Origin: Candidatus Pacearchaeota archaeon
GTDB lineage: Archaea; Nanobdellota; Nanobdellia; Pacearchaeales; GW2011-AR1
Direction of reading: 5' to 3'
NCBI GenBank assembly: GCA_023133415.1
Contig: JAGLWM010000004.1
Coordinates: 3,574-67,573 of the forward strand
Length of the DNA stretch: 64,000 nt
Shown here in pieces: positions 705 to 44,442 of the stretch (positions are counted from its first letter, which is position 1; every line of letters starts with the position of its first letter). The position numbers and the translations under genes are program-made. The notes under the pieces are model-generated. The model searched no databases and was not told the origin of the DNA. It worked only from the letters and a program-made list of their open reading frames with translations.

Positions 705-789
705 GTTAAGATGAGGAGTGGGATGTTTATAAAAGTTTAGAAAGATTTGGATTTTCTAGTTTACGGTTGGTAGGAGAGATAGGAGTGGG

Positions 790-2430
790 TTAAATTTCGT
801 TTTTGTTCTTTTGTTTTATGTGGAACTTTTCTGATGATTTAGTTTTAATTTGGAATGCTTTTCTTATTGTGTAGTTGATTGGATTTTTGATGCCTGAGGC
901 TGGGGGTGAGGTGATTCCAAATTCTTTGTAGATCGGTTTATCATAATTTGGTGGGAGGCGTTTGTTTTTGATTGACCATGCGATTTGGGATTTGATGTAG
1001 CCTTGTTTTAGTGGGGCGTAGTTTTTGCTGTTCCATATTTCTATTTTTTCTTCTATATAATCTTGGGGAAATTCGAGAGAGGTGAAAAATGCGAGCGATA
1101 GAGATAGGGCTCGTTTCCGGCCGTCGTTTGGGATTCCTTTGAGGAGTTTTTTGATGATTGGTGGGAACATGTCTTCTGTGATTGTTAGGCCTTTCAGATC
1201 AACTCCTTTACCGTCGTATTTTTTTGGGGCTTGCTCTGGTTTGTTTTGCTGGGCTTCTTCTAGTGCTTGGGTTAGAAGTTGGGATGCTTCGCCTTCGATT
1301 GAGTTTGGCATAAATGATTTGATTTTTGTTATTTTGAGTGGGTCTGCATCTGATGGTTTGAAGTCTTGGACTTGGGATTTGTCTAGGGGAATTGAAGCAT
1401 ATGCGGTTTTTTCGTGGAGGGAGTATGGAGCTCGGAATAGGTGACGTGGGGAAACTAGGACTATATCTACTGCATCTTGAGTTGATTTGATTGTGATTTC
1501 TTCTTTGAATTTTTGCTTGGTGTTTTCTTGTTGGATGCCTCCGAATGAACTCGTGGCTTCGAGTTTTGCGGTGTTGATTTTGCAGGTTTTGCAGTATTGG
1601 ATTTCTCTTTGGGAAGCTCTTTGCATTTTGCCGTTGCACGATGGGCAGAGCATTTCTTTTCTGTTTGATTTCATGGATTCTACTTCTGTCTTGCATTTGA
1701 TGTCGGGACAAATGTATTTGCCGATTGTTTTGGTTTTTGTTGGTTGGTTACATTTTGGGCAGAGATGTTCAGAGACTAGTTCACCTTGTTCTTTGAGTTT
1801 TTCTTTGCTTGAGAGTTTTAGGATTTCGTTATTCATTTTGTCTTTGATTTTTTTGAAAAGGTACTCGGCGATTGCTCGGGGCCAATCTGGAAATTGATCT
1901 TTTGTCAATTTGTCGCCAATTTTTTTAGGGAAGGCTTTGAATGGGACGATTATGTGGAATCCCTTTGAGCCTGAGAATTTGATGCCGACATTTTTTATAC
2001 CGTGGCGTTCGAATTGTTCGATGAGGAGTTTTGCTGCGATTTTTCCGTAGTCAAGGAAGGGGGAATCTATGTCGATTAGGAGATCCCAGCCTGTTTTGAT
2101 TTGGTTGTATTGTTCTGGTGTCATGTCTGTATTGATGTCAAGTGGGTTTTGCCAGATTTCTTCGGAGGTGTGGAAGGATGTTGCGCCTTGTTTTGCTTGG
2201 TTTAGGATGTCGGATGGGTAGTCGAATGTGTCAGGACGTTTGGCGAAGAAGCGGTTGTTGAAGTTGGCGACTGTTTCGCGGTCTTTGCAGAAGTCGAACA
2301 TGGCTTGTTGGATGTCGGCGCGAGCGTAATATGAAACTGCTATGTTTTCTGTTCGCGAGGGATTCGTATTTTGTGGGTTGGTGGTAGTTTTTGCGCTCTT
2401 CTTTCGCGCTTGTGGGTTGGCTTTATCCAT
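790..2430 (-). CDS. priS: archaeo-eukaryotic DNA primase catalytic subunit (PriS-like) with Zn-ribbon inserts and a C-terminal helical domain
   Basis: AEP motifs DLLIDIDS, FSGSKGFHIIVPF and RAPYSLHEKT. CxxC pairs CPKC..CPDIKC and CPSC..CKTC. TATA-like tttattaataaaa just upstream on the minus strand. Confidence 0.75.
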   Translation of the reverse strand: MDKANPQARKKSAKTTTNPQNTNPSRTENIAVSYYARADIQQAMFDFCKDRETVANFNNRFFAKRPDTFDYPSDILNQAKQGATSFHTSEEIWQNPLDINTDMTPEQYNQIKTGWDLLIDIDSPFLDYGKIAAKLLIEQFERHGIKNVGIKFSGSKGFHIIVPFKAFPKKIGDKLTKDQFPDWPRAIAEYLFKKIKDKMNNEILKLSSKEKLKEQGELVSEHLCPKCNQPTKTKTIGKYICPDIKCKTEVESMKSNRKEMLCPSCNGKMQRASQREIQYCKTCKINTAKLEATSSFGGIQQENTKQKFKEEITIKSTQDAVDIVLVSPRHLFRAPYSLHEKTAYASIPLDKSQVQDFKPSDADPLKITKIKSFMPNSIEGEASQLLTQALEEAQQNKPEQAPKKYDGKGVDLKGLTITEDMFPPIIKKLLKGIPNDGRKRALSLSLAFFTSLEFPQDYIEEKIEIWNSKNYAPLKQGYIKSQIAWSIKNKRLPPNYDKPIYKEFGITSPPASGIKNPINYTIRKAFQIKTKSSEKFHIKQKNKNEI

Positions 2431-2514: not shown

Positions 2515-3237
2515 ATGATATTAAAGTTGGATGAGCCGAAGTTATTAGGGGGTGCTATCGATATTATTTCAAATGTTGTTGTGGAGGTTCGGATTAAGTT
2601 GTTGGAAGATGGGTTGAGTATTATTGCGGTCGATCCGGCGAATGTTGCGTTGGTGATTTTTAGGTTGCCGAAGGAGAGTTTTGTTGAGTATGATGCTGGA
2701 AATGAGGTTTGGGGTGTGAATCTTGGGGATTTGAAGAAGATTTTGAAGAGAGCTAGTGGGGCTGCTAGTGTGACATTGGAGGAGGTTGAGGGGAAGCTGA
2801 AGATTAGCGTTTTTGATAAGGTGAAGCGGACTTTTAGTTTGGCGTTAATTGAGATAAGGAGTGAGGATAAGGATATTCCGGAGTTGAATTTTGGGGCGCG
2901 GGTTGAAATGGGATCTAGGGATTTTGCACAGGCTGTTGAGGATGCTAGTATTGTTGCTGACTCTTGCACGTTTGTTTTGAAGGATGATGTTTTTACGATT
3001 GAAGGAAACGGGAGCTTGAATTCGGCTAGGGCTGAGTTTGAAGGTGGAGAGCTTGAAATTTTTGGAAAGGGCAAGAGTAAGTACTCTCTTGATTATTTGA
3101 TGAAGTTTGTGAAGGGTGTGAATATCTCTGCGAATGTTGTTGTGAGTTTTTCTGACGATTATCCGTTGAGGTTGGATTTTCCTGGGGAAAGAATGGGGAT
3201 TGGTTTTGTGTTAGCACCGCGGGTTGAAAACGATTAA
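2515..3237 (+). CDS. pcn: DNA polymerase sliding clamp PCNA
   Basis: MILKLDEPKLLGGAIDIISNVVVEVRIKLLEDGLSIIAVDPANVALV.. has typical archaeal PCNA length and N-terminus. The track start 2509 is TTG; the ATG at 2515 fits the TATA spacing. Confidence 0.85.
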   Translation: MILKLDEPKLLGGAIDIISNVVVEVRIKLLEDGLSIIAVDPANVALVIFRLPKESFVEYDAGNEVWGVNLGDLKKILKRASGAASVTLEEVEGKLKISVFDKVKRTFSLALIEIRSEDKDIPELNFGARVEMGSRDFAQAVEDASIVADSCTFVLKDDVFTIEGNGSLNSARAEFEGGELEIFGKGKSKYSLDYLMKFVKGVNISANVVVSFSDDYPLRLDFPGERMGIGFVLAPRVEND

Positions 3238-3370
3238 TTGCTTGATGATTAGCTTCGTCTGTGGTAAAGTTGTATGTTTCTGCGTATGAGACGCAAAGTT
3301 TAGGTTTTAGCAACTTTTATATATGTGTATTCATAGTTGATTTTGTAGTGATATTAAACATTGTATTGTT

Positions 3371-3580
3371 ATGAATATCACTATTGGTATTGTTATGAAT
3401 ATTCATAGTAAAAAAATAATCGGGTTGATAAAAAAAGAGAAAGTGGTAACGAGTTCTGAGGTTGCGGATGTGCTTGGGTTGTCGTGGAATACGGCAGATA
3501 AATATTTGATGGAACTCCTTATTGAAGGAAAAATCGATAGAATAAAAAAAGCAGGAGTGAATTTATGGGCGCTGAAATGA
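3371..3580 (+). CDS. small winged-helix DNA-binding protein
   Basis: VTSSEVADVLGLSWNTADKYLMELLIEGKIDRIKK is a wHTH-like pattern. It is the first gene of the surface island. Confidence 0.5.
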   Translation: MNITIGIVMNIHSKKIIGLIKKEKVVTSSEVADVLGLSWNTADKYLMELLIEGKIDRIKKAGVNLWALK

Positions 3581-4395
3581 GTGCTTCGCACAGTAATGGG
3601 CAATGGGCAATGGGCAATGGGCATGTTGCGCTCTGTAGAGCGCTTGGAAGAAAGAGAGGACAGGTAACGATTTTTATTATTGTGGGGATTGTGATTGTTG
3701 TGGGGATTATTGCTTTTGCTTTTCTAATGCGGGATGTTGATATTGGACCAAAGCCTGATATTGATCCAAAGAATATTGTTCGAAGTTGTGTTAATGATTT
3801 GGTTAAAGATTCTATTGATAAGATGCTTATGAATGGTGGGGAAATTTTGCCGACGAGGGCTATTTCTTATGAGGGAGCTGAATGGAATTATTTATGTTAT
3901 CAGGCAGATTTTTATCAAGGATGTTATAATATTCATCCTATGTTAGAGATACAGATTGAGAAGGAAATTGAAAAGGATAGTTTGAGTGGAGTGCAGAATT
4001 GTTTTGATGTTATGAGGCAGGATCTTGAAAATCGTGGATTTAGTGTTGGGGGTGGAGCGACTGATTATTCCATTGATTTGCTGCCTGGATATGTTGATGT
4101 CAAGCTAGAAAAAAGGGTTGAAATTTCTAAGGAGGGGAGTTCGCAGGTTTTTGATGATTTTGGGTTTGAGGTGGTTTCGCCGATTTATGATTTGGTTCGG
4201 GTGGCTCGGCTTATTGTGAATGATGAGTCGCAGTTTTGTAATTTTGAGTATAATGGTTATATGCTTTTATATCCGAAATATGATATTAGGAGAATTGATT
4301 ATCGAGATAGTAAGATTTATCGGTTGATTGATCGGAGGAGTGGGGATGAGTTTCGATTTGCTATAAGGAGCTGTGCATTTGCGCCTGGAATATGA
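3565..4395 (+). CDS. pilin-like protein with class III signal peptide (RKRGQ + hydrophobic helix)
   Basis: ..GRKRGQVTIFIIVGIVIVVGIIAFAFL. Paralog of 8687..9430. The real start may be ATG 3610. The 5' end overlaps hairpin and aatgggc x3 repeat modules. Confidence 0.65.
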   Translation: MGAEMSASHSNGQWAMGNGHVALCRALGRKRGQVTIFIIVGIVIVVGIIAFAFLMRDVDIGPKPDIDPKNIVRSCVNDLVKDSIDKMLMNGGEILPTRAISYEGAEWNYLCYQADFYQGCYNIHPMLEIQIEKEIEKDSLSGVQNCFDVMRQDLENRGFSVGGGATDYSIDLLPGYVDVKLEKRVEISKEGSSQVFDDFGFEVVSPIYDLVRVARLIVNDESQFCNFEYNGYMLLYPKYDIRRIDYRDSKIYRLIDRRSGDEFRFAIRSCAFAPGI

Positions 4396-31779: not shown

Positions 31780-31822
31780 AAAATAATATAGGGGAAGTGG
31801 TTTTTAAGTTTTTAAGAATTTG

Positions 31823-32062
31823 GAATCGTTCGATTTCGTCAGGCTCTTTCTTTTTTAGAAAAAAAGAAATTCCCTGGAAGTAGAAAAAACTATAATTCCA
31901 ATGCTTCGCATTGGTTTTGACGAAATCTTTTTAGAATCGTTCGATTTCGTCAGGCTTTTTCTTTTTTAGAAAAAAAGAAATTCCCTGGAAGTAGAAAAAA
32001 CTATAATTCCAATGCTTCGCATTGGTTTTGACGAAATCTTTTTAGAATCGTTCGATTTCGTC
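31823..32062 (-). repeat. 111-bp tandem repeat (2 full copies + partial) that includes the last about 20 nt and stop codon of sepF
   Basis: gaatcgttcgatttcgtc recurs at 31823, 31934 and 32045. The unit contains tttctttttt-aga-aaaaaagaaa and ccaatgc-ttc-gcattgg hairpins, closed by tttcgtca/tgacgaaa. Confidence 0.9.
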
Positions 32063-34014: not shown

Positions 34015-34081
34015 GAATGGGGCCACGCAGATTTGAACTGCGGTCGCGAAGTCCCAAACCTCGAATCATACCAGGCTAGAC
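34009..34081 (-). tRNA. tRNA-Pro (anticodon UGG)
   Basis: GGGGCCA/TGGCCCC acceptor stem, CGAGG-TTTGGGA-CTTCG anticodon arm, CGCAG-TTCAAAT-CTGCG T arm. 73 nt, no encoded CCA. Confidence 0.85.
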
Positions 34082-34122
34082 CATGGCCCCATGAGTTTGA
34101 GGTGATTTGTTGATTAATAAAG

Positions 34123-34755
34123 TTATTTCTTTTCTGTTTCTACTTCGGCTTCGACTTTCTTTTCTTCTTCGGCTGCCTTTTCTGCGTCTTCAGCCTTCTT
34201 GATTTCTTCTTGTTTTGCGGTAATCGTTGCAAAGTAATCGTCTAATATTTTTCGTTTTTCTGGATCAATTTCTGTTTTTTTGGCTGAAATTTCTTCTGCA
34301 AATTTTCCTTCGTTAATCTCTTGCATAATTTCTCTTGTTTCCTTGTTCTCGATTAATATGCCTAAAGCTTGACATGTTCCAATTACGGATTTTAGCGTTG
34401 CCATAAAATCGTTTGAAAGCATTGAATCGTGTTTCGCTTTTGCTACTGCAATTACTTGTTCAATTGCAAAGTTTCCGACTCGTTGTTTTAATCTTGCGCT
34501 GGATGCTTTTTCTATTCCGAGTTCTTTTTTGATTAATTCTGAAGTTGGTGGGGACAATACCTTGATTGAAACTTCTTTTGTGTCAGGGTCAATTGTTAGA
34601 TGAACCGGAAGTGTTACGCCTTTGAATTCTTGTGTTGCCGCATTTATGTCGGAGATTACCTGTCCTATGTTGATTCCCATTGGTCCGAGTTGTTGTGCCA
34701 CGGCTGGACCTGGTGTCATGTTTCCGCCTTCGACTAATAATTTAATAATTGCCAT
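34123..34755 (-). CDS. rpl11: 50S ribosomal protein L11 (uL11) with Lys/Glu/Ala-rich C-terminal extension
   Basis: KLLVEGGNMTPGPAVAQQLGPMGINIGQVISDINAAT..; tail ..KKAEDAEKAAEEEKKVEAEVETEKK. Confidence 0.85.
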   Translation of the reverse strand: MAIIKLLVEGGNMTPGPAVAQQLGPMGINIGQVISDINAATQEFKGVTLPVHLTIDPDTKEVSIKVLSPPTSELIKKELGIEKASSARLKQRVGNFAIEQVIAVAKAKHDSMLSNDFMATLKSVIGTCQALGILIENKETREIMQEINEGKFAEEISAKKTEIDPEKRKILDDYFATITAKQEEIKKAEDAEKAAEEEKKVEAEVETEKK

Positions 34756-34756
34756 G

Positions 34757-34838
34757 ATTTCTTTCTTTTTAGAAAAAATAAATTTCTCGCAAGTAGAAAA
34801 ACTTTTCTTCCAAAACTTCGTTTTGATTTAATTCCATG
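34757..34838 (-). mobile_element. 82-bp hairpin element between duplicated CATG sites at the rpl11 start; encodes a 22-codon uORF
   Basis: CATG at 34753-34756 and 34835-34838. TATA (rc of gtttaaaaga, 34858-34867) lies about 25 nt upstream of the distal ATG. uORF MELNQNEVLEEKFFYLREIYFF*, with its stop 13 nt before the rpl11 ATG. Confidence 0.7.
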
Positions 34839-34871: not shown

Positions 34872-35546
34872 CTACTCTTCGTCTTCGAGTTCCTCCCTTC
34901 TGATTACTCTGATGTTATCTAATTTTACTGTAACTGGAATTGGTACTGCTGCTCCCAAAAGAGATACAACACATTCGTTCTTTGGCTTGTCGACTCGAAC
35001 GACCTTTGCCTTTTCGTTTTTGAATGGTTCGGAAATAATTTCTATGATGTCATTCTTTTCAATTTTGATATCGGCTGCCACTGGCTCTAGCATTTGTTTG
35101 ACTTTGTCATATGTTACAGTTTCGCCGATGATTCCTTTAACATATGGTAGATTGAATACTGCGTCTTCTGCACATTTGTGATCTGGGGATTCTAGGAAAA
35201 TGTAGCCTCGTAGTCCGTGAGGTCGTGCGATTGCGTAGATTTCGATATTCTTTTTCTTAACTTTGTCTGCAATCATTTCTATGGCCTTGTCTTCTTTATT
35301 TGTTGTAACTTTTACGATGTAGATTTGTGAGTCGAATTTTCTTTTTGGTTTTTCTTCTATTCCAGCTTCTTTTTCAATCTCTTTTTCTTCTTCTTCTAGT
35401 TCTACTGCTGGTTCTGTATCGACTTTTTCTTCAGGGATTAGAGATGGTGAAATTGCTCCTTTGATTTTTGGAGCGAAGGTTTCTTCGGTTGCGAGGCTAT
35501 CGTCCTCTTCGAGGTAGTCGAATTCATCGTCATATCCAATTGCCAT
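34872..35546 (-). CDS. spt5: transcription elongation factor Spt5 (NusG) with acidic N-terminal extension
   Basis: NGN + KOW: IYIVKVTTNKEDKAIEMIADK..LRGYIFLES..KNDIIEIISEPFKNEKAKVVRVD. The first roughly 70 aa are D/E-rich. Confidence 0.8.
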   Translation of the reverse strand: MAIGYDDEFDYLEEDDSLATEETFAPKIKGAISPSLIPEEKVDTEPAVELEEEEKEIEKEAGIEEKPKRKFDSQIYIVKVTTNKEDKAIEMIADKVKKKNIEIYAIARPHGLRGYIFLESPDHKCAEDAVFNLPYVKGIIGETVTYDKVKQMLEPVAADIKIEKNDIIEIISEPFKNEKAKVVRVDKPKNECVVSLLGAAVPIPVTVKLDNIRVIRREELEDEE

Positions 35547-35547
35547 G

Positions 35548-35629
35548 ATTTCTTTCTTTTTAGAAAAAAGAAATTTCTCGCAAGTAGAAAAACTTTTCTT
35601 CCAAAACTTCGTTTTGATTTAATTCCATG
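35548..35629 (-). mobile_element. second copy of the start-codon element (spt5)
   Basis: CATG at 35544-35547 and 35626-35629. TATA-like tcataaaaat at 35646-35655. uORF MELNQNEVLEEKFFYLREISFF*. Confidence 0.7.
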
Positions 35630-35716
35630 ATTTGTTTGCACTAGTTCATAAAAATCTAAGAACTAGATATAATTTATTGAAAGTTTGGGTTTAAAAAAGT
35701 TTTGGTGTTCGAAATT

Positions 35717-35928: not shown

Positions 35929-37041
35929 TTATTCCTCGAAGAATTCGATTCCGAGTTCTCCTTCTATGTCTTTTCTTCGGGCTTCTTCGATTGGGAGTCT
36001 CTCGCCTGAAATTTGCGGGGATTTTACTCCTGTTATTATAACCATTACTTTTAGAGATTTTTCTAGATCTTTTGAAATTTGTGCTCCTGAGATTAGCTTT
36101 GCGTCTGGGGAAAGTTGTTCGCCTATTTTTTGGATGACCTGTTTGTATTCGTCGAGAGCCAGGTCTGTTCCGCCGATTACGTTTACTAGAGCGCCTTGAG
36201 CATTTTTTATATCGACGTCTAAAAGTGGGTTGTTTAGCGCCTTGTCGACTGCTTCTGCGGCTCGGTCGTTTGAATCGGATTCGCCCATGCCGATTAGTGA
36301 GACTCCACCATTTGCCATGATTGCTTTGATGTCTGCAAAGTCTAGGTTGACTAGTCCCGAGGATGTTACTAATTCGGTGATTCCTTTGACTGCATTTGTT
36401 AGGATTTCGTCAGCGACTTTGAATGCTGTTGGTAGAGGTAGATCTGGTGCGAGGTCTAGGAGTTTGTCGTTTGGGATTACGATTAGTGTGTCGACGATTC
36501 CTTCCATTCTTTCGAGTCCTTCCATCGCGTTTTCAATTCGTTTTGCGCCTTCAACGGTGAAGGGTAGGGTTACGACTCCGATTACTAGGGATCCTTGTTT
36601 TTTTGCCATTTCGGCTACTACTGGGGCTGCTCCTGTTCCGGTTCCGCCTCCGAGTCCACATGTTACAAAGATTAAATCTGAATTGGAAAGTTTTTTCTTG
36701 ATGTCTTGTGCCTGTTCTTTTGCGGCTTCGGCTCCGATTCGTGGATTTGATCCAGCACCTAGACCTTTTGAGATTTCTCGTCCGATTAGAATTTTTTGGT
36801 CAGCATTTGCATATAGAAGATCTTGTGCGTCGGTGTTTATTGCGATTATTTCTCCTCCCTTAATTCCAATTTCGCGCATTCGGGATGTTGTGTTTCCGCC
36901 TCCTCCGCCGACTCCGATGACTTTGATTCTTGCGGATTGTTTTTTGAGAATTTGCTCCAGTTCTTTGTCTATCTCGGCGTTTGTATTGGGCTGTGAGATT
37001 GATTGCATCTCTGGGATATCATCTCTTAGTATGTCTTCCAT
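35929..37041 (-). CDS. ftsZ: cell division GTPase FtsZ
   Basis: VIGVGGGGGNTTSRM and GLGGGTGTGAAPVVA tubulin signature. Confidence 0.95.
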   Translation of the reverse strand: MEDILRDDIPEMQSISQPNTNAEIDKELEQILKKQSARIKVIGVGGGGGNTTSRMREIGIKGGEIIAINTDAQDLLYANADQKILIGREISKGLGAGSNPRIGAEAAKEQAQDIKKKLSNSDLIFVTCGLGGGTGTGAAPVVAEMAKKQGSLVIGVVTLPFTVEGAKRIENAMEGLERMEGIVDTLIVIPNDKLLDLAPDLPLPTAFKVADEILTNAVKGITELVTSSGLVNLDFADIKAIMANGGVSLIGMGESDSNDRAAEAVDKALNNPLLDVDIKNAQGALVNVIGGTDLALDEYKQVIQKIGEQLSPDAKLISGAQISKDLEKSLKVMVIITGVKSPQISGERLPIEEARRKDIEGELGIEFFEE

Positions 37042-37042
37042 G

Positions 37043-37125
37043 GATTTCTTTCTCTTTAGAAAAGAGAAATTTCTCGCAAGTAGAGAAACTTAAATTCCAA
37101 AACTGCGTTTTGATTTAATTCCATG
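37043..37125 (-). mobile_element. third copy of the start-codon element (ftsZ), with compensatory change in the TAGA-loop hairpin
   Basis: CATG at 37039-37042 and 37122-37125. TATA tttataatta at 37146-37155 lies 26 nt upstream of the distal ATG. uORF MELNQNAVLEFKFLYLREISLF*. Confidence 0.7.
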
Positions 37126-37175
37126 AGATAAAAGGTGGATTTGGGTTTATAATTATTTGTGGGATTGGGTGGATA

Positions 37176-38096
37176 TTAAAGGTGTTTTGCAATGTCCTCT
37201 AATATTTCATGACCAGCCCTAACTCTTGCCTCTGACGTTTTTTGCCCTGTAATTGTTCTTCCTATAACTTCTATATCCGAACCATCTTGGGCAGCATTTC
37301 CTGGAGTAAAGACTCTTTTTTGATCTTCTCCTGCGGGGGTATTCGGTCCTTTTATTCCTGGAGTTACAAACATAAAATTACTAGGCATTTTGTCTTTTAC
37401 TGCGTATAAATCTGCTGCAGAACAAACAATCCCATCGAGACCTGCGTTGTGAGCCATTTTTGCATAATTTAAAACGGAGTCAGGAACTATATCGTCTAAA
37501 TTCAATCTCTTTAGCAGGGAGTCGAACGGGTTTCCATATACTTCCAAAAAAAGTTTTTGAAGTTTAAGTTTTTCATATTCATTTTTTTCTTCTCTAATTC
37601 TTATATCGGCATTAATCGCTTGTGAAAATGGGAAATTGCATAATTCCGTTCTTGTCTTTTCATATAGTGACCCTACCGGCAATTTTTCTATTATTGGAAG
37701 TGTATTTTGTATGTATCTTAGATTATCAAGACTAGTAAGAATAGTAACTGCTGTTATTTTTGGAGTCACTGTTCCATATTGTTTTGTTCCTTCCATTGCA
37801 CCTTTAACTGCTGCCTGCATCATCTCTTGACCTCCCGAGGCATGAACATTAAACATATAGACTCCTAATTGAGCTGCGGCATTTGCAGCCCCCCTTACAG
37901 TATTTGGGATATCGTGATATTTTAAGTCCAAAAAAACATCCGCCCCATATTCTTGAACCATTTTTATTGCATCTGGTCCAAATCTAGTATAAGTTTCTTT
38001 GCCAACTTTAAATAATCCAACTACCGGACTTAATTCCTTAACTCTATTTTCTGCGGCATTCATAGTTGACAAACCATCAAGTGGCATGCAAACCAT
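37176..38096 (-). CDS. pyrF: orotidine 5'-phosphate decarboxylase
   Basis: FLDLKYHDIPNT, FNVHASGG. Start uncertain (38096, 38132 or 38159). Confidence 0.8.
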   Translation of the reverse strand: MVCMPLDGLSTMNAAENRVKELSPVVGLFKVGKETYTRFGPDAIKMVQEYGADVFLDLKYHDIPNTVRGAANAAAQLGVYMFNVHASGGQEMMQAAVKGAMEGTKQYGTVTPKITAVTILTSLDNLRYIQNTLPIIEKLPVGSLYEKTRTELCNFPFSQAINADIRIREEKNEYEKLKLQKLFLEVYGNPFDSLLKRLNLDDIVPDSVLNYAKMAHNAGLDGIVCSAADLYAVKDKMPSNFMFVTPGIKGPNTPAGEDQKRVFTPGNAAQDGSDIEVIGRTITGQKTSEARVRAGHEILEDIAKHL

Positions 38097-38100
38097 TTTT

Positions 38101-38949
38101 CTAGCTTGTTGTTGTTTTGCTGTTAATTTCATTTTGAGATAGAAGCTCTTTGGGTACATTTAATTTTTGTAATCTATCCGTAAGCTCTTCTTTTAAATAG
38201 GGATAGCCTACTCTTAAAATCTTTTGACCCTTTCTTAAAGTTTTTTTATCCATTAATATTTTTTTTAGTTTTTGGACTCCCGCGTCACTTCTTAACATTT
38301 TTTCTGCCCAAGAATCTTTATCTTCCATTCTCGCTTTAAGATTCCAATAACAATCATTATTAACCGCACCCTTGGCGTATAAGTAATCCCATGCATGTCC
38401 ATCCAATTTGACAACTGCATGACCTTTGAGACCAAGATTTTCTACCACTTGAACTCCATTTTCCATTCTTTCTACATAAAAGAAAACATCTGATATTTCG
38501 CCTCCAGCTTTTTTTATTATTGGTATCCAATAATCTCTAACGGATGACCCTTCATTATTTAAATCTGCAACATGCAAAATTCTTTTTCCAGCCATAGAAG
38601 CCCCTACAGTCTTTTCGTTTTTATATAACATAACATGAGCTTTTGAAATGTCGTGGTCTCTTACAAGATTATTGACCACTAAATTTGAAAATATCCAATC
38701 CCTCGTTTCGCCTCCAGATATAATATCTATTTTATCCAAGGAAACTGTATCATGAATTAAGTCTGTCATATCTCTTGCAGCTGATGCATAATTTCTTCCG
38801 TTATTCATAACCGCTCCACTTTGAACAAAATATGGACCTATTTTCCCGGAAGTGTATGGAAAAAAAGTATCCGTAAAGTCGAATCCGTCATTCGTTACGA
38901 GAATATTAAGATTTTTCTCTTGTAATTTTTTTTTATTGGCCATAGGCAA
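38101..38949 (-). CDS. phosphoribosyltransferase-fold protein, PyrE-like paralog
   Basis: FPYTSGKIGPYFVQSG.., ISGGETRDW, RILHVADLNNEGSS (PRPP-loop-like). Confidence 0.55.
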   Translation of the reverse strand: MPMANKKKLQEKNLNILVTNDGFDFTDTFFPYTSGKIGPYFVQSGAVMNNGRNYASAARDMTDLIHDTVSLDKIDIISGGETRDWIFSNLVVNNLVRDHDISKAHVMLYKNEKTVGASMAGKRILHVADLNNEGSSVRDYWIPIIKKAGGEISDVFFYVERMENGVQVVENLGLKGHAVVKLDGHAWDYLYAKGAVNNDCYWNLKARMEDKDSWAEKMLRSDAGVQKLKKILMDKKTLRKGQKILRVGYPYLKEELTDRLQKLNVPKELLSQNEINSKTTTS

Positions 38950-39004
38950 ATTTTAGGAAATCAAGTTTTTAAGAATTTATATATTAAATTAATAGAGTTA
39001 TTTT

Positions 39005-39251
39005 TTCTTTTCTTCAACAACTTCGCTCTCTACTTTCAATCCTAATATTTCCTCGAATTTTGGTGAGAACATTTTTATGAATTGCTCGGCTTCTTTTGGT
39101 ACTTTGAATGTGATTGTTTTTTCTTTGACTTCGTAGTCAAATATCTGTTGGAATAAAAAATCTTGAAGTGCGTTGATTTTTTCTTTTTGGTCGGTTATGA
39201 TTTTATTGATTTTGAATGAACATGCATATGGAGATAATCTTTGTGACCACT
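39005..39251 (-). pseudogene. chimeric gene fragment: FKBP C-terminal tail fused to a pyrF N-terminal scrap
   Basis: 39005-39214 is identical by eye to 43805-44014 (3' end of the FKBP gene). 39215-39251 matches 42755-42791. Confidence 0.8.
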
Positions 39252-39413
39252 AAGCTAAAACTTTGTTTGAAAGGTGTGCAAGTTTACGCAAGAATTATTC
39301 TTCACAATAATTAAGTTATTTTGAGAGACTAAAGAATTAATTTATGCACAATGTCTATCACATAACAATCTTTATAAACTATTGACGATATAAACCATTA
39401 TTAAAATTAAAAA

Positions 39414-42362
39414 ATGGTGAGTAAAAAAAGATTTTTTGTTTTAGGCATAATGTTTTTGTTTGCTTTGAGTTTTATTTCTTCTTCATCAACAGGTCTTAAA
39501 ATCCTCCCGCCTGATAATGGTATTTATTTAGGGTCTTATGATTTTGATAATGGTCTTGATGTATTTGAACAGGCAATTGGAAAAAAAGTGGCGATTGCTC
39601 CAAATGTCTGTTTTAATGCAGAAGCTACTATTCCTAAATTTGATATCAATTGCTATGAAAAATTATATCAGAAGGGCTATGTAAGTGTCTTTGGTTTTGA
39701 GGGTACTCCAGATCCTAAAAATCCAAATCCAAACAAGGGAGACTTTACTTCTCAACAAATAATTGATGGGGATGCAGATTATATTTTTCAAGATATGGCA
39801 AAAGATATTAAACAATTTGGCAAACCAATTTTTTGGGATTATCCAAGGGAGCCAAGGGTTCAACCAGGTTTTGGTTATGATGGTGGGGGTTATGGACATA
39901 AAGCTGATGAAACTTATAGTGAAGTTTTAGAAAGAGGGGGCAATCCTAAAGCAGAATACGGTAATACTAATGCACTTGATGGACCAGAACGCTACAGAGA
40001 TATGTGTAGGCATATTCATGATGTGGTTGAAGCAGAATGTTCTGGCTGTGTAACTTGGATTATGGGAGCCATAATAAACGACGTGCAGGTATTTGGAGTA
40101 AATAGCAAGTCTCAACTTCCTCCTCCACTTAATGAATTGACTTATATTGATTTTTATCCTGGTGATAATTATGTAGACTGGCATGCTATTGATATCTACA
40201 GTTCGAGTCTGGAAACAGGTGTTAATATGGATTTTGATTCATCTGCTGGTGAATCATTTCAGGAAATTATTGCTGTAAGTTCCAATAAGCCAATTATGAT
40301 ACTGGAGTTTGGAGTATTTGATTCAGTTAATGATAGATCAAATTGGTTTAAAGATTTTTTTAATCATGTGAAAAATGATCCTAAAAAGAAAGGTTATGAC
40401 AAAATAGGTGCATTTAATTATTGGCAAATGGGTGTAAATGTATTTGATGATATGATATTCAATATGTATACTAGAATTAATTCAACATACCCCTCCGCCC
40501 AAGCATGGCAAACGGAAATTCAGGCAAATTCTAATTTTTGGATTTCAAATGTGAATACTGGAACGCCACCAACAAAAACCTGCTCCCAACAAAACGGCTA
40601 CATCTGTTCGGCTTCTGAAACTTGTTCCGGAAATTGGCTGACAGCTTCGGATACAAGTAGGTGTTGTGATGTGGAGTGCAGTTCTTCGTCGAGCATAACC
40701 AAAACTTCAGGAACATACACCTGTCTCACTTGCGCCAAAGCGCATCACTGGGAGATTGATGAAAATCATATGCTTTGGTGGGACAACCAGCCATATATCC
40801 CTTATGGAGGATTTGGAGTGCAGAGCATTAATAATCAATTTGGTATCACTGATTTCAACAATTGGATTGATAGGGAGAATAACAATGATCCAGCATATAT
40901 CCAGCAACATATTAAAGATTTTGATAAATGGACTACAGAGATTTCTGATGGTGGTGGGACTTATATTATTCAGTGGTCTATAAATAGCCCTCCAAATAAT
41001 GATGCTTCAAAACTTGCAGACCCAAGTGTTAAGCAGCAGATAGTTGATGAATGGAAACTTTATGTTCCAGCAGTGGCAAAAGAGGGGCTTAGAGGAATGG
41101 TAATCTGGAACGAAATTGATGTTGATTTTAGCTGGCCAAATACTTTTACTAATGATGAATATGGAAACATTTTGGGGGAATACGCCAAAGAATTAAAAAA
41201 TATGGTTGGTGATGTGCCAATTTCGCTTAAGGCGACAGGGAGTTTTATTTACGGATACGGGAAAGTGAATCCGGTTGTTGCAGGAGCAACAAATGAATAT
41301 GCCGGAGGGTTGGGATTTGATATATTCCCAACAACATGTAGTAGTTCAAATTTTGATTCAGTAAGTCAAATCAAAACAAAAATAGAACAAAATCAGAAAA
41401 AAACAACATGGTTTTGGATTGCTGAATTTGGAGTTGGAAGAGAGGAAGGTGAAATAGAGGGAGAATTAGGGTGTTATTGGGATAGTTTCCCACCGTTTCA
41501 GTCTAAACAGGATATGAAGTGTTATTTGGAAAATTTAGTTAATGCTGGTGCCAAAGGATTTATTTACAATGGTCCAAATAGTGTTCAAAACCCTGCTGGT
41601 TGCGAGCAAAGTTATTATCAAAGTTATGTCTGGTATTCAGAATTAAAGAATGAGATTATTCAAAAAACGATCTCAACGAATAATAAAGAGACCTGCAACA
41701 ACAACGGAATTTGCGAAGCTCATCTGGGAGAAACTCAACAGAATTGCCAGAGTGATTGCGAAGAAATAAATGAACACGAAGGAGAAACGGGAGAGATAAC
41801 AAGTTCTCAATGCTACACTGATTGTATGGCAGAAGCAGGAAATACAGATGCTGGTTGCAAGAGTTGGTGTAGTGGTCAAGGCACAGAAGAACAAGAAGGA
41901 GAAGTTAGCAATAGTGAAAGTGAGAATGGAGAAAAAGATAAAAGTTTTTTTGGAAAAATTATTGATTGGATAAAAAGAATTTTATTTGGAGAAAGTAATA
42001 AAGATGTTGAGAAAATAGAATACGAAATTCAAGAAAACGAAGATCAAACAGGTGAGAATGAAGATCAGCTTAATGGAATAAGAGAAAGTGATGAGTTAGT
42101 TTCTGAAAGCGGTAGAGTAATTTCTAATCAATGCTACACTGATTGTATGGCAGAAGCAGGAAATACAGCAGATTCATGTCGTGCTTGGTGTGATAGAGAA
42201 GAAGTTAGTGAAGAAGGCGAAGAAGAACCTGGCAAGGAAGAAGATATTACTCAAACACAATGCTACACTGGTTGTATGGCAGAAGTAGGAAATACCGATG
42301 CTGGATGCAGAAACTGGTGCAATAGTCAAAGTGATGAAGATTTTGCTGAAGAGATAGGATAA
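39414..42362 (+). CDS. secreted two-domain glycoside-hydrolase-like (TIM-barrel) protein with three C-terminal 4-Cys repeats
   Basis: Signal peptide MVSKKRFFVLGIMFLFALSFISSSS. PIMILEFGV and WFWIAEFGV nucleophile-like motifs. (S/N/T)QCYT(D/G)CMAE(A/V)GNT..(G/S)C(K/R).WC occurs three times. Base composition differs from the flanks. Confidence 0.6.
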   Translation: MVSKKRFFVLGIMFLFALSFISSSSTGLKILPPDNGIYLGSYDFDNGLDVFEQAIGKKVAIAPNVCFNAEATIPKFDINCYEKLYQKGYVSVFGFEGTPDPKNPNPNKGDFTSQQIIDGDADYIFQDMAKDIKQFGKPIFWDYPREPRVQPGFGYDGGGYGHKADETYSEVLERGGNPKAEYGNTNALDGPERYRDMCRHIHDVVEAECSGCVTWIMGAIINDVQVFGVNSKSQLPPPLNELTYIDFYPGDNYVDWHAIDIYSSSLETGVNMDFDSSAGESFQEIIAVSSNKPIMILEFGVFDSVNDRSNWFKDFFNHVKNDPKKKGYDKIGAFNYWQMGVNVFDDMIFNMYTRINSTYPSAQAWQTEIQANSNFWISNVNTGTPPTKTCSQQNGYICSASETCSGNWLTASDTSRCCDVECSSSSSITKTSGTYTCLTCAKAHHWEIDENHMLWWDNQPYIPYGGFGVQSINNQFGITDFNNWIDRENNNDPAYIQQHIKDFDKWTTEISDGGGTYIIQWSINSPPNNDASKLADPSVKQQIVDEWKLYVPAVAKEGLRGMVIWNEIDVDFSWPNTFTNDEYGNILGEYAKELKNMVGDVPISLKATGSFIYGYGKVNPVVAGATNEYAGGLGFDIFPTTCSSSNFDSVSQIKTKIEQNQKKTTWFWIAEFGVGREEGEIEGELGCYWDSFPPFQSKQDMKCYLENLVNAGAKGFIYNGPNSVQNPAGCEQSYYQSYVWYSELKNEIIQKTISTNNKETCNNNGICEAHLGETQQNCQSDCEEINEHEGETGEITSSQCYTDCMAEAGNTDAGCKSWCSGQGTEEQEGEVSNSESENGEKDKSFFGKIIDWIKRILFGESNKDVEKIEYEIQENEDQTGENEDQLNGIRESDELVSESGRVISNQCYTDCMAEAGNTADSCRAWCDREEVSEEGEEEPGKEEDITQTQCYTGCMAEVGNTDAGCRNWCNSQSDEDFAEEIG

Positions 42363-42514
42363 AAATAAAAAATAATTTTTTTAGAGAAATAACAACTAAC
42401 AAAAAACTTGACAAGGAGTTTTTAAGAGAAACATCGAGAAGGCAATTTGAACATATGAATAAAAATTTAAAACAAAATAAAAAAATTTAATTTCTGAAAC
42501 TTGCCAAAAAACAT

Positions 42515-42883
42515 TTGATTTTGCGATATTACTTTTTTGGCTTTTTCTTTTATTCGACTGCTTTTGTTTCGATTTTTAGATTAAGTATTTCTTCGAATTT
42601 TGGCGAGAACATTTTTATGAATTGCTCGGCTTCTTTTGGTACTTTGAATGTGATTGTCTTTTTTTCTATCTCGAAATTGAAAACTTGTTGGAATAAGAAA
42701 TCTTGGAGTGCGTTAATTTTTTCTTTTTGGTCGGTTACGATTTTATTAATTTTGAATGAACCTGTATATGGAGATAATCTTTGTGACCACTCTAGTGCTT
42801 GTTCTACACTATCGGTATCTAATGCTATACAGACCCTTTCTCTTGCTAGTTTTTCTTGTGGTGTTAGTCATCTTAGGTTAAAA
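42515..42883 (-). pseudogene. frameshifted pyrF-N-terminus / FKBP-C-terminus chimeric remnant
   Basis: ATG at 42883 gives MTNTTRKTSKRKGLYSIRYR*. The +1 frame reads ..VCIALDTDSVEQALEWSQRLSPYTGSFKINKIVTDQKEKINALQDFLFQQVF..FIKMFSPKFEEIL... The plus-strand track ORF 42515..42973 is a shadow. Confidence 0.7.
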
Positions 42884-42929
42884 GTGCAATTTTTTTCAAT
42901 TACTTCTAATGATTTATTTCTGAAATCCC

Positions 42930-43727
42930 TTATTTACTTTTCTCTCTTCCGTATAATTTCATATACTTATTAAATTCATTATATATTTTAGAGTTTAGTG
43001 GTTGTTTTTTATCATTAATCATTAAAGGATGTTTTAAATTAAAAAGATAGTCAATCACTTCTCTTATCCCTACTATTGAATCAACCGGGATTCCTGTTTT
43101 TTTAACAAAGTTGCCAATTGCATCTTCTCCCTTTACCCCGTGAATAACTCTTTCCTTATTTGATAATTCTTTTGACTTGGATTCATCATAGACGGGACCC
43201 ACTTGTTCTCTATCAACAGCTATTCCTACTTCTACTACTTTGGTTTTTATACCTAAGGATTTACTTTCATGTGCTATTTTTTCAAGACCTTCAAATTTTG
43301 TAGCCATTGATGTGCCAACATCATCAATTAGATAGATGTTGCAGCCGTCATAGAATTTTGCTCCTACAAACATACTATCCTTTAGAGAAGACTCTCCATG
43401 TGTTTTTGCCTCTTTCCTATCATAACAACATCCAATATCAATATTGTAATTTTTTAAAAGAGCGAGTGTTGTATCTCCTGCAATTAAACTTGCTTTATAT
43501 GATGGACCAAAAATAATATCTATCTTCATGCCATTATCCATTTTCTGTTTAATCATTCCTGCATAAGCATTTGCAAGCTCCCATCTAAGACTAGCTTTAT
43601 CCGCAAAATTGCCTATATTCACAAAGTAAGGTGTATTTCTTCCGTCTTTCAGAAAAAGGTTGTCTTTCAGAAAAAGCGCGCCTGAATCTGCTAAAATTTT
43701 TGAGAAATTTTCTTTATATTTTTCCAT
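42930..43727 (-). CDS. pyrE: orotate phosphoribosyltransferase
   Basis: FLKDGRNTPYFVNIGNF, IIFGPSYKASLIA, IYLIDDVGTSMATK. Confidence 0.75.
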   Translation of the reverse strand: MEKYKENFSKILADSGALFLKDNLFLKDGRNTPYFVNIGNFADKASLRWELANAYAGMIKQKMDNGMKIDIIFGPSYKASLIAGDTTLALLKNYNIDIGCCYDRKEAKTHGESSLKDSMFVGAKFYDGCNIYLIDDVGTSMATKFEGLEKIAHESKSLGIKTKVVEVGIAVDREQVGPVYDESKSKELSNKERVIHGVKGEDAIGNFVKKTGIPVDSIVGIREVIDYLFNLKHPLMINDKKQPLNSKIYNEFNKYMKLYGREKSK

Positions 43728-43788
43728 ATTCTATTAGTTTATCAGAAAAATTGGGTTTATAATAATTATTGGGATTGAGTTTGCGATA

Positions 43789-44442
43789 TCATTCTTCCGG
43801 CTTCTTCTTTTCTTCAACAACTTCGCTCTCTACTTTCAATCCTAATATTTCCTCGAATTTTGGTGAGAACATTTTTATGAATTGCTCGGCTTCTTTTGGT
43901 ACTTTGAATGTGATTGTTTTTTCTTTGACTTCGTAGTCAAATATCTGTTGGAATAAAAAATCTTGAAGTGCGTTGATTTTTTCTTTTTGGTCGGTTATGA
44001 TTTTATTGATTTTGTAGGTGTAGGTTATGGGTTTTCCGGCTAGTGGGTTATTGAAGTCGACAAGTGTTCGGCCTCTGTCTGATGATAGGATTTTTACGAT
44101 TTGCCCGTCGAGGTTTAGCTGCATGCCTCTAACTGGGTTGATTTTTTGTTCGTGGAAATGTTTTGTTGGGATCATTCTGACTAATTGGGGGTTTCTTTTT
44201 CCGAAGGCTTCTTCTGATTTTAGATTGACCTCATAATCTTTTCCGACTTCTTTTCCAGTTAGATTGTTGTCGAAACCTTTTGGGAGCATTTTGTGTCCGA
44301 CTGATAGAATGAGTGGTTTGATTCCTTCTGTTTTGAAGTTGGCGGATTTTGCGTCGGCTTTTATATTTGTGTCAAAGATTTCATTTGTATCTGTGATTTT
44401 TCCGGTGAATTCAATTTCTATGAAATCGTTTTTGTTTATCAT
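43789..44442 (-). CDS. FKBP-type peptidyl-prolyl cis-trans isomerase (long archaeal/SlyD-like type)
   Basis: DFIEIEFTGKITDTNEIFDTN.., LPKGFDNNLTGKEVGKDYEVNL..AFGKRNPQLV. Confidence 0.8.
   Translation of the reverse strand: MINKNDFIEIEFTGKITDTNEIFDTNIKADAKSANFKTEGIKPLILSVGHKMLPKGFDNNLTGKEVGKDYEVNLKSEEAFGKRNPQLVRMIPTKHFHEQKINPVRGMQLNLDGQIVKILSSDRGRTLVDFNNPLAGKPITYTYKINKIITDQKEKINALQDFLFQQIFDYEVKEKTITFKVPKEAEQFIKMFSPKFEEILGLKVESEVVEEKKKPEE

Follow-up and report, generated by a model that had tools for sequence, protein, structure and literature searches.

Three Copies of an FKBP26 Gene End

How did the pyr region of a Candidatus Pacearchaeota archaeon come to hold pieces of an FKBP isomerase gene, fused to pieces of pyrF, on both sides of a gene for a large secreted or membrane-anchored protein? 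The features of the locus within the window, i.e., the whole 64,000-nt stretch of DNA that was analyzed, are collected in Table 1.

Table 1 Features of the FKBP26-ftsZ interval and its borders (window coordinates).
Feature	Position	Strand	Remarks
ftsZ, conserved right border of the island	35929..37170	-	promoter 37118-37170
Dispersed element, ~88 nt	37042-37129		inserted at the ftsZ ATG
pyrF2, intact OMP decarboxylase, long form, 327 aa	37176..38159	-	PF00215 3.1e-41
pyrE2, OPRT-like, 280 aa, cassette Y	38101..38943	-	83% aa identity to L066, 65% to L067
Common FKBP gene end (EEKKK, stop) + spacer + cassette Y promoter	38944..39004	-	precedes pyrE2
FKBP' copy A	39005..39214	-	no difference from copy C (live gene) over 210 nt
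pyrF1' scrap of chimera A	39215..39251	-	codons ~28-42 only; in-frame TAG precedes
GH982, intact 982-aa secreted or membrane-anchored protein	39414..42362	+	N-terminal GH26-like domain, second undefined domain, three 4-Cys C-terminal modules
Radical-SAM-type gene scrap, 3' end, ~32 codons	42401..42497	+	matches the end of a 380-aa gene at C11:4387-5529 with 86% nt identity
FKBP' copy B	42515..42754	-	~70 C-terminal codons + stop region + ~14 nt of G000-type FKBP 3' flank; premature TAA
pyrF1' scrap of chimera B	42748..42871	-	ATG + 42 codons of the second OMP decarboxylase gene; 2-nt deletion in codon 2 giving a frameshift
pyrE1, orotate phosphoribosyltransferase-like, 265 aa, cassette X	42930..43727	-	its L062 counterpart, located between FKBP and pyrF1, shows 76% aa identity
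FKBP 3' flank + consensus promoter cccaataattattataaaccc	43728..43788	-	where relatives have the ftsZ promoter; here in front of pyrE1
FKBP26-type peptidyl-prolyl isomerase, intact, 217 aa	43789..44442	-	Pfam FKBP_C + FKBP26_IF; last ~70 codons include copy C

The source gene of the repeat is of the FKBP26 type. Residues 3-134 of its product match PF00254 (FKBP_C, 2.1e-8) and PF22199 (FKBP26_IF, 1.4e-12), i.e., an FKBP catalytic domain and an IF (insert-in-flap) domain, which are followed by a C-terminal domain, and orthologs in 20 congeners show 57-76% aa identity. The repeat covers residues ~145-215, the portion after the IF domain, which, by analogy with the M. jannaschii FKBP26, is presumably the dimerization domain.

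The exact 210-nt run between copy A and the 3' end of the intact FKBP gene (copy C, 43805-44014), reported in a preliminary description of this DNA, was confirmed to the base; when 39002-39214 is aligned with 43802-44014, 1 mismatch is found in 213 nt. A third copy had been placed at about 42580-42754 with 85-90% similarity. The copy exists, but its identity to copies A/C over the FKBP part (42542-42754) is 83%. The homology between A and B extends over 39002-39251 and 42542-42791 (85.3% over 252 nt), and that between B and C reaches ~14 nt beyond the FKBP stop (42515-42754 and 43775-44014). BLAST of the whole genome (836 kb) detected no copy of the FKBP repeat beyond A, B, and C.

The ends of the copies differ in their affinities. 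The tail and flank of copy B (atatcgcaaa) are common to copy C only, and copies B and C fall in the same FKBP-C clade (support 100/98). Since tail, 3' flank, and clade are all shared with copy C, copy B derives from the FKBP gene of this very lineage. The tail after copy A (EEKKK and stop, taaCTCTAT) matches the FKBP ends of the relatives L067, L062, and L066; it diverges from copy C three bases short of the derived KKKPEE end and from there on is DNA of cassette Y.

Chimeric Joins of pyrF1 and FKBP

In copy B, codons 1-42 of a second pyrF gene (pyrF1) run into the FKBP26 C-terminus, and the two parts meet in a microhomology of 6 nt, CAAAAT. The join preserves the frame; the genes that it links are unrelated and have the same orientation. 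Read on the minus strand, chimera B gives (M)LTPQEKLARERVCIALDTDSVEQALEWSQRLSPYTGSFKI followed by NKIVTDQKE... and then a stop, and chimera A gives, directly after a stop, WSQRLSPYACSFKI followed by NKIITDQ.... The crossover base differs between them, att in B (pyrF1 type) and atc in A (FKBP type). The FKBP tail had been described as joined in both copies to the N-terminus of a second, frameshifted pyrF. This is correct for B, where a 2-nt deletion shifts the frame, but A keeps only 13 pyrF codons (codons ~28-42) and not the whole N-terminus; the A-to-B homology stops abruptly at 39251.

The pyrF1' part of chimera B matches the start of pyrF1 of L067, a 252-aa OMPdecase, in 38 of 41 residues and at 86.7% nt identity. 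The chimera pyrF1' and the pyrF1 of L062, which sits 24 nt downstream of the pyrE1 ortholog, share 74% aa identity. This homology to PF00215 proteins and the pyrE-pyrF context indicate that the N-terminal scrap originates from an OMP decarboxylase gene (pyrF). Neither chimera holds a complete pyrF reading frame with the catalytic residues: 42 or 13 codons are left, with a frameshift and stops. The ORF list has no entry on the minus strand at the chimeras, and since neither A nor B has an in-frame start before an internal Met, both are pseudogenes. The scraps are scars without function.

The FKBP26-ftsZ Interval in Relatives

FKBP26 adjoins ftsZ in 19 of 20 congeners, at a spacing of 55-630 nt, which makes all 6.7 kb from 37042 to 43788 a lineage-specific island. 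A site that is empty in 19 of the 20 genomes, together with the deviating composition of what fills it here, is what characterizes horizontally acquired or flexible DNA. Filled states of the same site are FKBP-pyrF2-ftsZ in G054, FKBP-pyrE2like-pyrF1-ftsZ in L067, and the single cassettes FKBP-pyrE1-pyrF1-ftsZ in L062 and FKBP(3' end)-pyrE2-pyrF2 in L066. Among the relatives, none was found in an intermediate state, with one chimera only or with GH982 by itself.

The window is colinear with L062 from 44481 to 42748 at 75% nt identity, and this colinearity ends at the B junction; it is colinear with L066 from 39218 to 37139 at 86.5%, and this colinearity begins at the A junction. The FKBP 3' flank in front of pyrE1, which was aligned with the FKBP-ftsZ spacers of relatives, is a 72% repeat of 37118-37170. 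The segment preceding pyrE2 is colinear with the FKBP end and spacer of L066, with the shared core ttaatatataaat. A search of Rfam over 34-45 kb detected nothing except the tRNA at 34018-34090.

Cassettes X (pyrE1-pyrF1) and Y (pyrE2-pyrF2) are two anciently diverged cassettes, stacked here and single in relatives. BLASTP gave no similarity between pyrE1 and pyrE2 (E = 1), and Pfam gave no match for either; homologs of pyrE1 bear PF00156 and the JGI name OPRT. A pyrE1 homolog was found in 0 of 48 congeners and pyrF in 6 of 48. The counterparts of pyrE2 in L066 and L067 both lie between FKBP and pyrF. The pyrF2 gene is 89.7% identical (nt) to that of L066, 77% identical (aa) to the gene between FKBP and ftsZ in G054, and 29% identical (aa) to pyrF1 of L067. 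Simple tandem duplication of one cassette was rejected on the missing similarity of pyrE1 to pyrE2 and the 29% identity of pyrF1 to pyrF2. The pyrE1, pyrE2, pyrF2, GH982, and FKBP genes are all intact.

Base Composition of the Island

The GH gene had been described as compositionally foreign. Among 602 ORFs, GH982 is typical in base content, GC3, and synonymous-codon likelihood (40th-77th percentiles). Since gene orientations are mixed, this percentile test is too blunt, and a strand-referenced GC3 skew test was used instead. In the four island genes (pyrE1, pyrE2, pyrF2, and GH982), the GC3 skew of the + strand lies between -0.12 and +0.16, compared with +0.5 to +0.97 in most other genes of the contig (contig median +0.73) and +0.6 in the neighbors FKBP and ftsZ; the GC3 of the island is 0.23-0.25. 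GH982 is thus no outlier in bases or codons, but, as pyrE1, pyrE2, and pyrF2, it is free of the strand-locked third-position skew of the chromosome, and to this extent the description holds. The G/T richness formerly ascribed to coding strands is a property of the + strand, and the foreign unit extends beyond the GH gene to all 6.7 kb that separate FKBP from ftsZ. The pyr cassettes lack the skew in each of three genomes, for which a recent arrival in this genome alone is no simple explanation.

Proposed History and Alternatives

The best explanation, which we consider probable, is a variable FKBP26-ftsZ island with stacked cassettes X and Y, an illegitimate join of pyrF1 to FKBP, a doubling of the resulting chimera, and a later conversion. 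Of this, we observed the repeats and junctions, the relatives with an empty site or one cassette, the points where colinearity breaks, and the pseudogene state. As a variable island of the genus, the interval is empty or holds one pyrE-pyrF cassette in relatives, and it holds two in tandem here. Illegitimate recombination at CAAAAT may have fused pyrF1 of cassette X (codon 42, ..SFKI) to the C-terminal third of FKBP (..YKI/NKI..), which would have killed pyrF1 and left a non-coding pyrF1'::FKBP' chimera. The two copies of this chimera carry complementary truncations: B is complete towards pyrE1 and cut ~14 nt past the FKBP stop, and A is cut at pyrF1 codon 28 and complete towards pyrE2. Such a layout would be expected if a single homologous crossover (Campbell-type) had taken place or if two haplotypes of the locus had exchanged DNA unequally. 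Gene conversion may later have homogenized the FKBP part of copy A with copy C, giving the 210-nt identity. What we infer is the sequence in which these events took place, the mechanism of the crossover, and the gene conversion.

The assembly bears directly on this history. Three independent Logan k=31 contigs (run SRR13892600), found via predicted partial gene products, match 42628-43834, 37062-39034, and 39185-41836 at 100%; they confirm three repeat-flank junctions, and the last of them (L073) contains the chimera A junction. Each ends 30 nt into a repeat, none spans the 210-nt repeat, and an exact direct repeat of this length gives the same assembly graph for integrated and excised forms. 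Moreover, since the tail of copy A is the common FKBP end of L067, L062, and L066, the N-terminal part of FKBP, the repeat, and this tail would together form an ordinary gene with cassette Y behind it, the arrangement of L066. With all four repeat-flank junctions real, the true chromosome could then read FKBP-pyrE2-pyrF2-ftsZ, with the repeat misresolved or strains mixed, and the 4.8 kb that hold pyrE1, chimera B, GH982, and the scrap could be circular or tandem or belong to a co-existing strain. We regard this as unlikely. The MAG contig and a 119,868-nt ENA scaffold from the same sample both carry the integrated order, and a different copy number of a 111-nt repeat elsewhere shows that they are separate files. 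No replication or mobility gene lies on the 4.8-kb piece, the live FKBP gene is intact as assembled too, and the chimeras and scraps would stay real even so.

The perfect identity of copies A and C is consistent with gene conversion, and the earlier proposal to this effect is a reasonable reading of the alignments: the FKBP part of copy A is 79.1% identical to L066, a value below that of every 210-nt window of the adjacent cassette (156 windows, all at least 81.0%, median 88.6%). The perfect-identity tract is bounded by the ends of homology on both sides, and its flanks are 8-20% diverged from their counterparts. Faster evolution of the FKBP domain or assembly smoothing may contribute. Conversion would be unneeded if A and B were two independent illegitimate pyrF1-FKBP joins at the same microhomology, B being old and A very recent. 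The one-base difference at the crossover makes a second independent event possible, and the perfect A-C identity begins exactly at the microhomology. However, the same 6-nt site would have to serve twice, in frame, and a 5'-truncated copy of pyrF1 must have adjoined GH982. The departure of the copy A tail before KKKPEE into cassette Y fits homologous exchange or conversion between FKBP-C copies better, and we consider two separate joins improbable.

It is similarly doubtful that the 3.5-4.8-kb GH982 segment, with or without pyrE1, is an integrase-free mobilizable circle that would move via host homologous recombination at the captured pyrF1'::FKBP'. If this is true, DPANN archaea, which have no known mobile-element machinery at the site, would possess a simple mechanism of cargo shuttling. 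The island or the GH segment might also be taken for a site-specific integrative element at the FKBP 3' end that brings a replacement copy, as tRNA-targeting elements do; inserted DNA is flanked by direct repeats of the gene 3' end, and the site is repeatedly occupied in the genus. This is very improbable, with repeats of 210-250 nt that are far above att-core length, single-cassette relatives that have no repeats, and a pyrF1' piece in both repeats that is unexpected for an att duplication, and it was rejected on the ORFs of 37042-43788, among which no integrase, transposase, or other mobility gene was found. That the chimeric frames (~70 FKBP' codons, open throughout in A and almost so in B) encode functional small proteins, free FKBP26 C-terminal (dimerization) domains that modulate the chaperone, is scarcely credible given the lack of an in-frame start ahead of the internal Met, the frameshift after the ATG and the premature TAA in B, the in-frame TAG preceding A, and the outcome of an exact-pattern search with the junction 21-mer, in which collections of metagenomes and species genomes gave 19 matches, all of them seed-only chance matches in unrelated organisms.

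Comparison with Known Recombination Systems

The locus clearly exemplifies ordinary genome shuffling and is no new kind of system. As in flexible genomic islands of the replacement or additive type, the borders (FKBP26 and ftsZ) are conserved in the genus, the content is empty or consists of alternative cassettes, and the island differs in composition from the core. Unlike islands with clean swaps, two cassettes are stacked here via an illegitimate junction inside genes, and unlike the usual cases, the host is a DPANN archaeon known solely from metagenome assemblies.

The in-frame CAAAAT join of unrelated genes resembles the microhomology junctions of tandem duplications and unequal crossovers (illegitimate recombination, MMEJ, and template switching), and a chimera of the head of the downstream gene and the tail of the upstream gene is as expected for the order FKBP...pyrF. 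On the other hand, the sides of this junction are two different cassettes and no self-duplicate, and the partners were therefore probably two haplotypes, not sister copies. As in Campbell-type single-crossover integration, two ~250-nt homology copies flank a cargo, with complete outer and truncated inner sides; unlike in that system, no circular donor was observed, the cargo is without replicon functions, and the mechanism is read from the layout alone. The perfect-identity tract in a copy with diverged flanks is like intrachromosomal gene-pseudogene conversion, although de Bruijn-graph bubble popping could mask a few real differences here.

The locus traces base by base how accessory metabolic genes are reshuffled in an ultra-small archaeon known from metagenomes: a variable site that keeps its place between two core genes, alternative versions of a pyrE-pyrF cassette, a single join at a microhomology, and short paralogous pieces that underwent homologous exchange or conversion. 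It provides useful evidence that homologous and illegitimate recombination both operate in DPANN genomes. Since the chimeras could be mis-called as genes, caution is needed in annotation and binning.

The Cargo Between the Chimeras

The cargo of ~3.3 kb consists of an orphan GH26-like gene and the radical-SAM scrap. Chimeras A and B do bracket the 982-aa GH-like gene, as the preliminary description stated. It further suggested that short-homology recombination inserted or mobilized this gene; the join links pyrF1 to FKBP, i.e., two alternative cassettes, and leaves the arrival of the GH gene unexplained. In tblastx of the gaps around GH982, only the radical-SAM scrap was detected, and no remains of pyrE1 or pyrF1.

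A full-length GH982 homolog was found in 0 of 48 congeners, the gene is absent from all searched relatives, and Pfam gave no match even at E = 10. Only 6 distant homologs were found, two of them with PF02156. Residues 199-322 match the CtLic26A structures in the PDB (phmmer, 1.5e-9), and IMILEF of the nucleophile motif IMILEFG is aligned to the IIIAEF nucleophile strand of CtLic26A. The candidate acid/base, possibly in an REP motif at ~residue 146, lies within a weak 4.7-bit stretch only. Internal repeats were detected in GH982, and a host-type TATA box is located ~40 nt upstream of the gene.

Three FKBP repeats and their junctions

A repeat search, and a BLAST search covering all 21 contigs of the 836-kb genome, revealed three direct copies of the FKBP 3′ end (A, B and C) and no others. 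Copy C is the final third of the intact gene for a 217-aa isomerase of FKBP26 type, with Pfam matches to FKBP_C and FKBP26_IF. The 210-bp identity between copy A and this live gene, noted in the preliminary description, was recovered as an exact run. The third copy, described there as 85-90% similar at about 42580-42754, is real but less similar (83%).

Features of the locus (window coordinates unless a contig is named).
Feature	Coordinates	Strand	Remarks
Copy A	39002-39214	minus	213 nt, one mismatch to copy C
Copy B	42542-42754	minus	83% identity to A and C
Copy C	43802-44014		within live FKBP gene
Exact A/C run	39005-39214 = 43805-44014		210 nt
Limit of A-B homology	39251/42791		85.3% over 252 nt
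Limit of B-C homology	42515/43775		about 14 nt past FKBP stop
Island, FKBP stop to ftsZ ATG	37042-43788		6.7 kb
GH982, GH26-like ORF	39414-42362	plus	982 aa
Radical-SAM scrap	42401-42497	plus	97 nt; 86% to G000:C11:4394-4491
Colinear with L062	44481 down to 42748		ends at B junction
Aligned to L066	39218 down to 37139		86.5%; starts at A junction
Logan contigs (k=31, SRR13892600)	42628-43834; 37062-39034; 39185-41836		100% identity
Dispersed element, about 88 nt	37042-37129; 35543-35630; 34752-34838
pyrF2 insertion, about 70 residues	37600-37830		residues about 147-217
Tandem repeat	about 31819-32062		ENA scaffold 111 nt shorter
Insert in L014 (G019:C8)	3187-3819		630 nt; small ORF, Nudix-like by eye
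Insert in L032 (G023:C31)	757-1082		325 nt

On the minus strand, chimera B reads ATG, a frameshift, LTPQEKLARERVCIALDTDSVEQALEWSQRLSPYTGSFKI joined to NKIVTDQKE..., and a premature TAA; chimera A reads TAG-WSQRLSPYACSFKI joined to NKIITDQ.... Relative to pyrF1 of L067, a 35-kb contig from a relative, scrap B lacks 2 nt of codon 2 (atgaATcta to atgacta), and the L067 pyrF1 start matches it at 38/41 residues (86.7% nt). The earlier claim that the FKBP tail is fused at KINKI to the N-terminus of a second, frameshifted pyrF is thus confirmed in B, from the ATG onward, but A retains pyrF1 only from codon 28. Since neither chimera has an in-frame start ahead of its internal Met and the ORF listing of the window contains none at either site, both are pseudogene scraps.

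Throughout the locus, the window agrees base for base with an ENA scaffold from its own sample; elsewhere, the two assemblies differ in tandem-repeat copy number. Three independent Logan contigs match perfectly, each with the expected end 30 nt inside a repeat; that covering 39185-41836 was located via a predicted truncated 807-aa product. Given these contigs, real molecules carry the chimeric junctions and the joins to the flanks. An alternative pairing of the flanks across the 210-nt repeat would give a chromosome with only cassette Y (pyrE2-pyrF2), the 4.8-kb piece being separate or strain-specific. The repeats themselves exist, and the locus can be read as a variable island in which two alternative pyrE-pyrF cassettes are stacked and recombination has left scars. 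It is a well-resolved case of ordinary genome plasticity from an archaeal group about which little is known.

Two alternative cassettes at a variable site

Protein searches and contig look-ups yielded three informative assemblies from other samples, each with a single cassette. L062 (5.8 kb) has the order eIF5A (divergent), FKBP, pyrE1 (76% aa identity), pyrF1 (250 aa), promoter, ftsZ; L066 (2.1 kb) carries the FKBP 3′ end, pyrE2 (83% aa) and pyrF2 (318 aa); and L067 has FKBP, a pyrE2-like gene, pyrF1 and ftsZ. Where the window carries the pyrF1 scrap, upstream of KIN(K/R)I, the L066 sequence is genuine FKBP. Duplication of one cassette from the other is ruled out: pyrE1 and pyrE2 share no BLASTP similarity, and pyrF1 and pyrF2 are only 29% identical. 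Since the window is colinear with L062 and L066 and the cassettes are not duplicates, it consists, as assembled, of cassette X (pyrE1-pyrF1) interrupted at pyrF1 codon 42, followed by the cargo and by cassette Y from mid-FKBP. The chimeric junction was not found in other assemblies.

By tblastn synteny, FKBP is followed directly by ftsZ-secE-spt5 in 19 of 20 congeners, with a spacer of 55-120 nt in most, 325 nt in one (L032) and 630 nt in another (L014). Since FKBP adjoins ftsZ in these 19, the whole island, which contains pyrF2, pyrE2, scrap A, GH982, scrap B and pyrE1, is lineage-specific. Among 48 congeners, pyrE1 and full-length GH982 have no homologue and six have pyrF homologues; G054 has the order FKBP-pyrF2-ftsZ. 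The L014 and L032 inserts likewise point to the spacer as a hot spot for insertions.

One copy of the dispersed element is inserted precisely at the ATG of ftsZ and is flanked by ATGGAA on either side. It has at least 20 copies on C1, C3, C4, C5, C8, C12, C15, C18 and C20 and also occurs in congeners; in relatives without it, the ftsZ promoter lies about 25 nt from the ATG.

Origin of the chimeras and the identical tract

At the junction, pyrF1 (..tca ttc aaa att gg.) and FKBP (..acc tac aaa atc aat aaa atc) share the microhomology CAAAAT, and the crossover base differs: att in B (pyrF1 type) versus atc in A (FKBP type). With the order FKBP...pyrF, a misaligned exchange at CAAAAT would yield precisely this product, a pyrF-head::FKBP-tail chimera lying between two cassettes. 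The 5′ side of B runs unbroken into pyrE1, and its tail and flank (KKKP..*, atatcgcaaa) are common only to B and C. Since B groups with C, L067, G003 and G015 in the tree of FKBP C-terminal segments (100/98 support), it derives from its own lineage's FKBP. A starts abruptly within pyrF1, and its 3′ side has the common FKBP end (EEKKK*), then the Y spacer, pyrE2 and pyrF2. The truncations of A and B are complementary, and between them lie the radical-SAM scrap and GH982, the latter preceded by a TATA box of host type. This layout would result from a single homologous crossover if a chimera already present recombined with DNA that bore the cargo and about 250 nt of that chimera; unequal exchange between two haplotypes would give an identical one. 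We infer such an origin from the layout, which is also compatible with events in a different order.

The radical-SAM scrap, just downstream of GH982, encodes the last ~32 residues of a radical-SAM/SPASM-like protein, matching the end of an intact 380-aa gene; it adds a third type of gene fragment to the island.

The FKBP part of A is 79.1% identical to L066, while pyrE2 and pyrF2 are 86.5% and 89.7% identical; all 156 sliding 210-nt windows across these two genes reach at least 81.0%. The FKBP C-terminal sequence type of L066 also differs (IEKQFEPFIKMFAP versus VPKEAEQFIKMFSP). The 210-nt identity probably arose when the live gene overwrote A, in a conversion bounded by the homology ends; the recent gene conversion suggested earlier fits this contrast, which is not proof of it.

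Composition of the island

The genome has an extreme, orientation-independent third-position skew: most genes on the contig have a plus-strand GC3 skew between +0.5 and +0.97, whereas the four island genes have -0.12, -0.09, +0.16 and -0.03, with GC3 of 0.23-0.25. The preliminary description had attributed a compositional contrast to the GH gene. Such a contrast exists, but as a property of the whole island and of the plus strand rather than of this gene or of coding strands; GH982 itself is typical of the genome in base content and codon use. The unskewed low-GC3 state occurs in ~20% of genes genome-wide, clustered in islands (GC3 0.24 versus 0.38 in the skewed ~80%, median |GC3 skew| ~0.7). 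These observations span window 37176-43727, contigs C1, C3, C12, C15, C17, C18, C20 and C21, and L062, L066 and L067, three different species in which the pyr cassettes are also unskewed and their core neighbours skewed. The pyrF1 scrap has apparently been in its own lineage since the split from L067, yet the resident pyr cassettes lack skew.

Public ENA gene calls for the scaffold (L059/L061) miss FKBP and ftsZ and place antisense ORFs there (e.g. 268 aa antisense to ftsZ), probably owing to the extreme strand composition, a caution for automated annotation of such genomes.

Gene functions

GH982 has a GH26-like N-terminal domain, which matches CtLic26A at 1.5e-9 with the nucleophile strand aligned, and only six distant homologues of the protein were found among 5.8 billion proteins. 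pyrF2 is a clear OMP decarboxylase (Pfam), and pyrE1 and pyrE2 belong to two families named orotate phosphoribosyltransferase by JGI, some members having PF00156. Since pyrD and a pyrB-type gene are also present in the genome, the cassettes probably make its de novo UMP synthesis complete. The pyrF2 insertion is common to this genome, G054 and L066 and is missing from the 250-285-aa pyrF of other congeners (loci L055-L058; G051, G008, G050, G058). In G058, pyrE and pyrF are fused in one ORF (476 aa).
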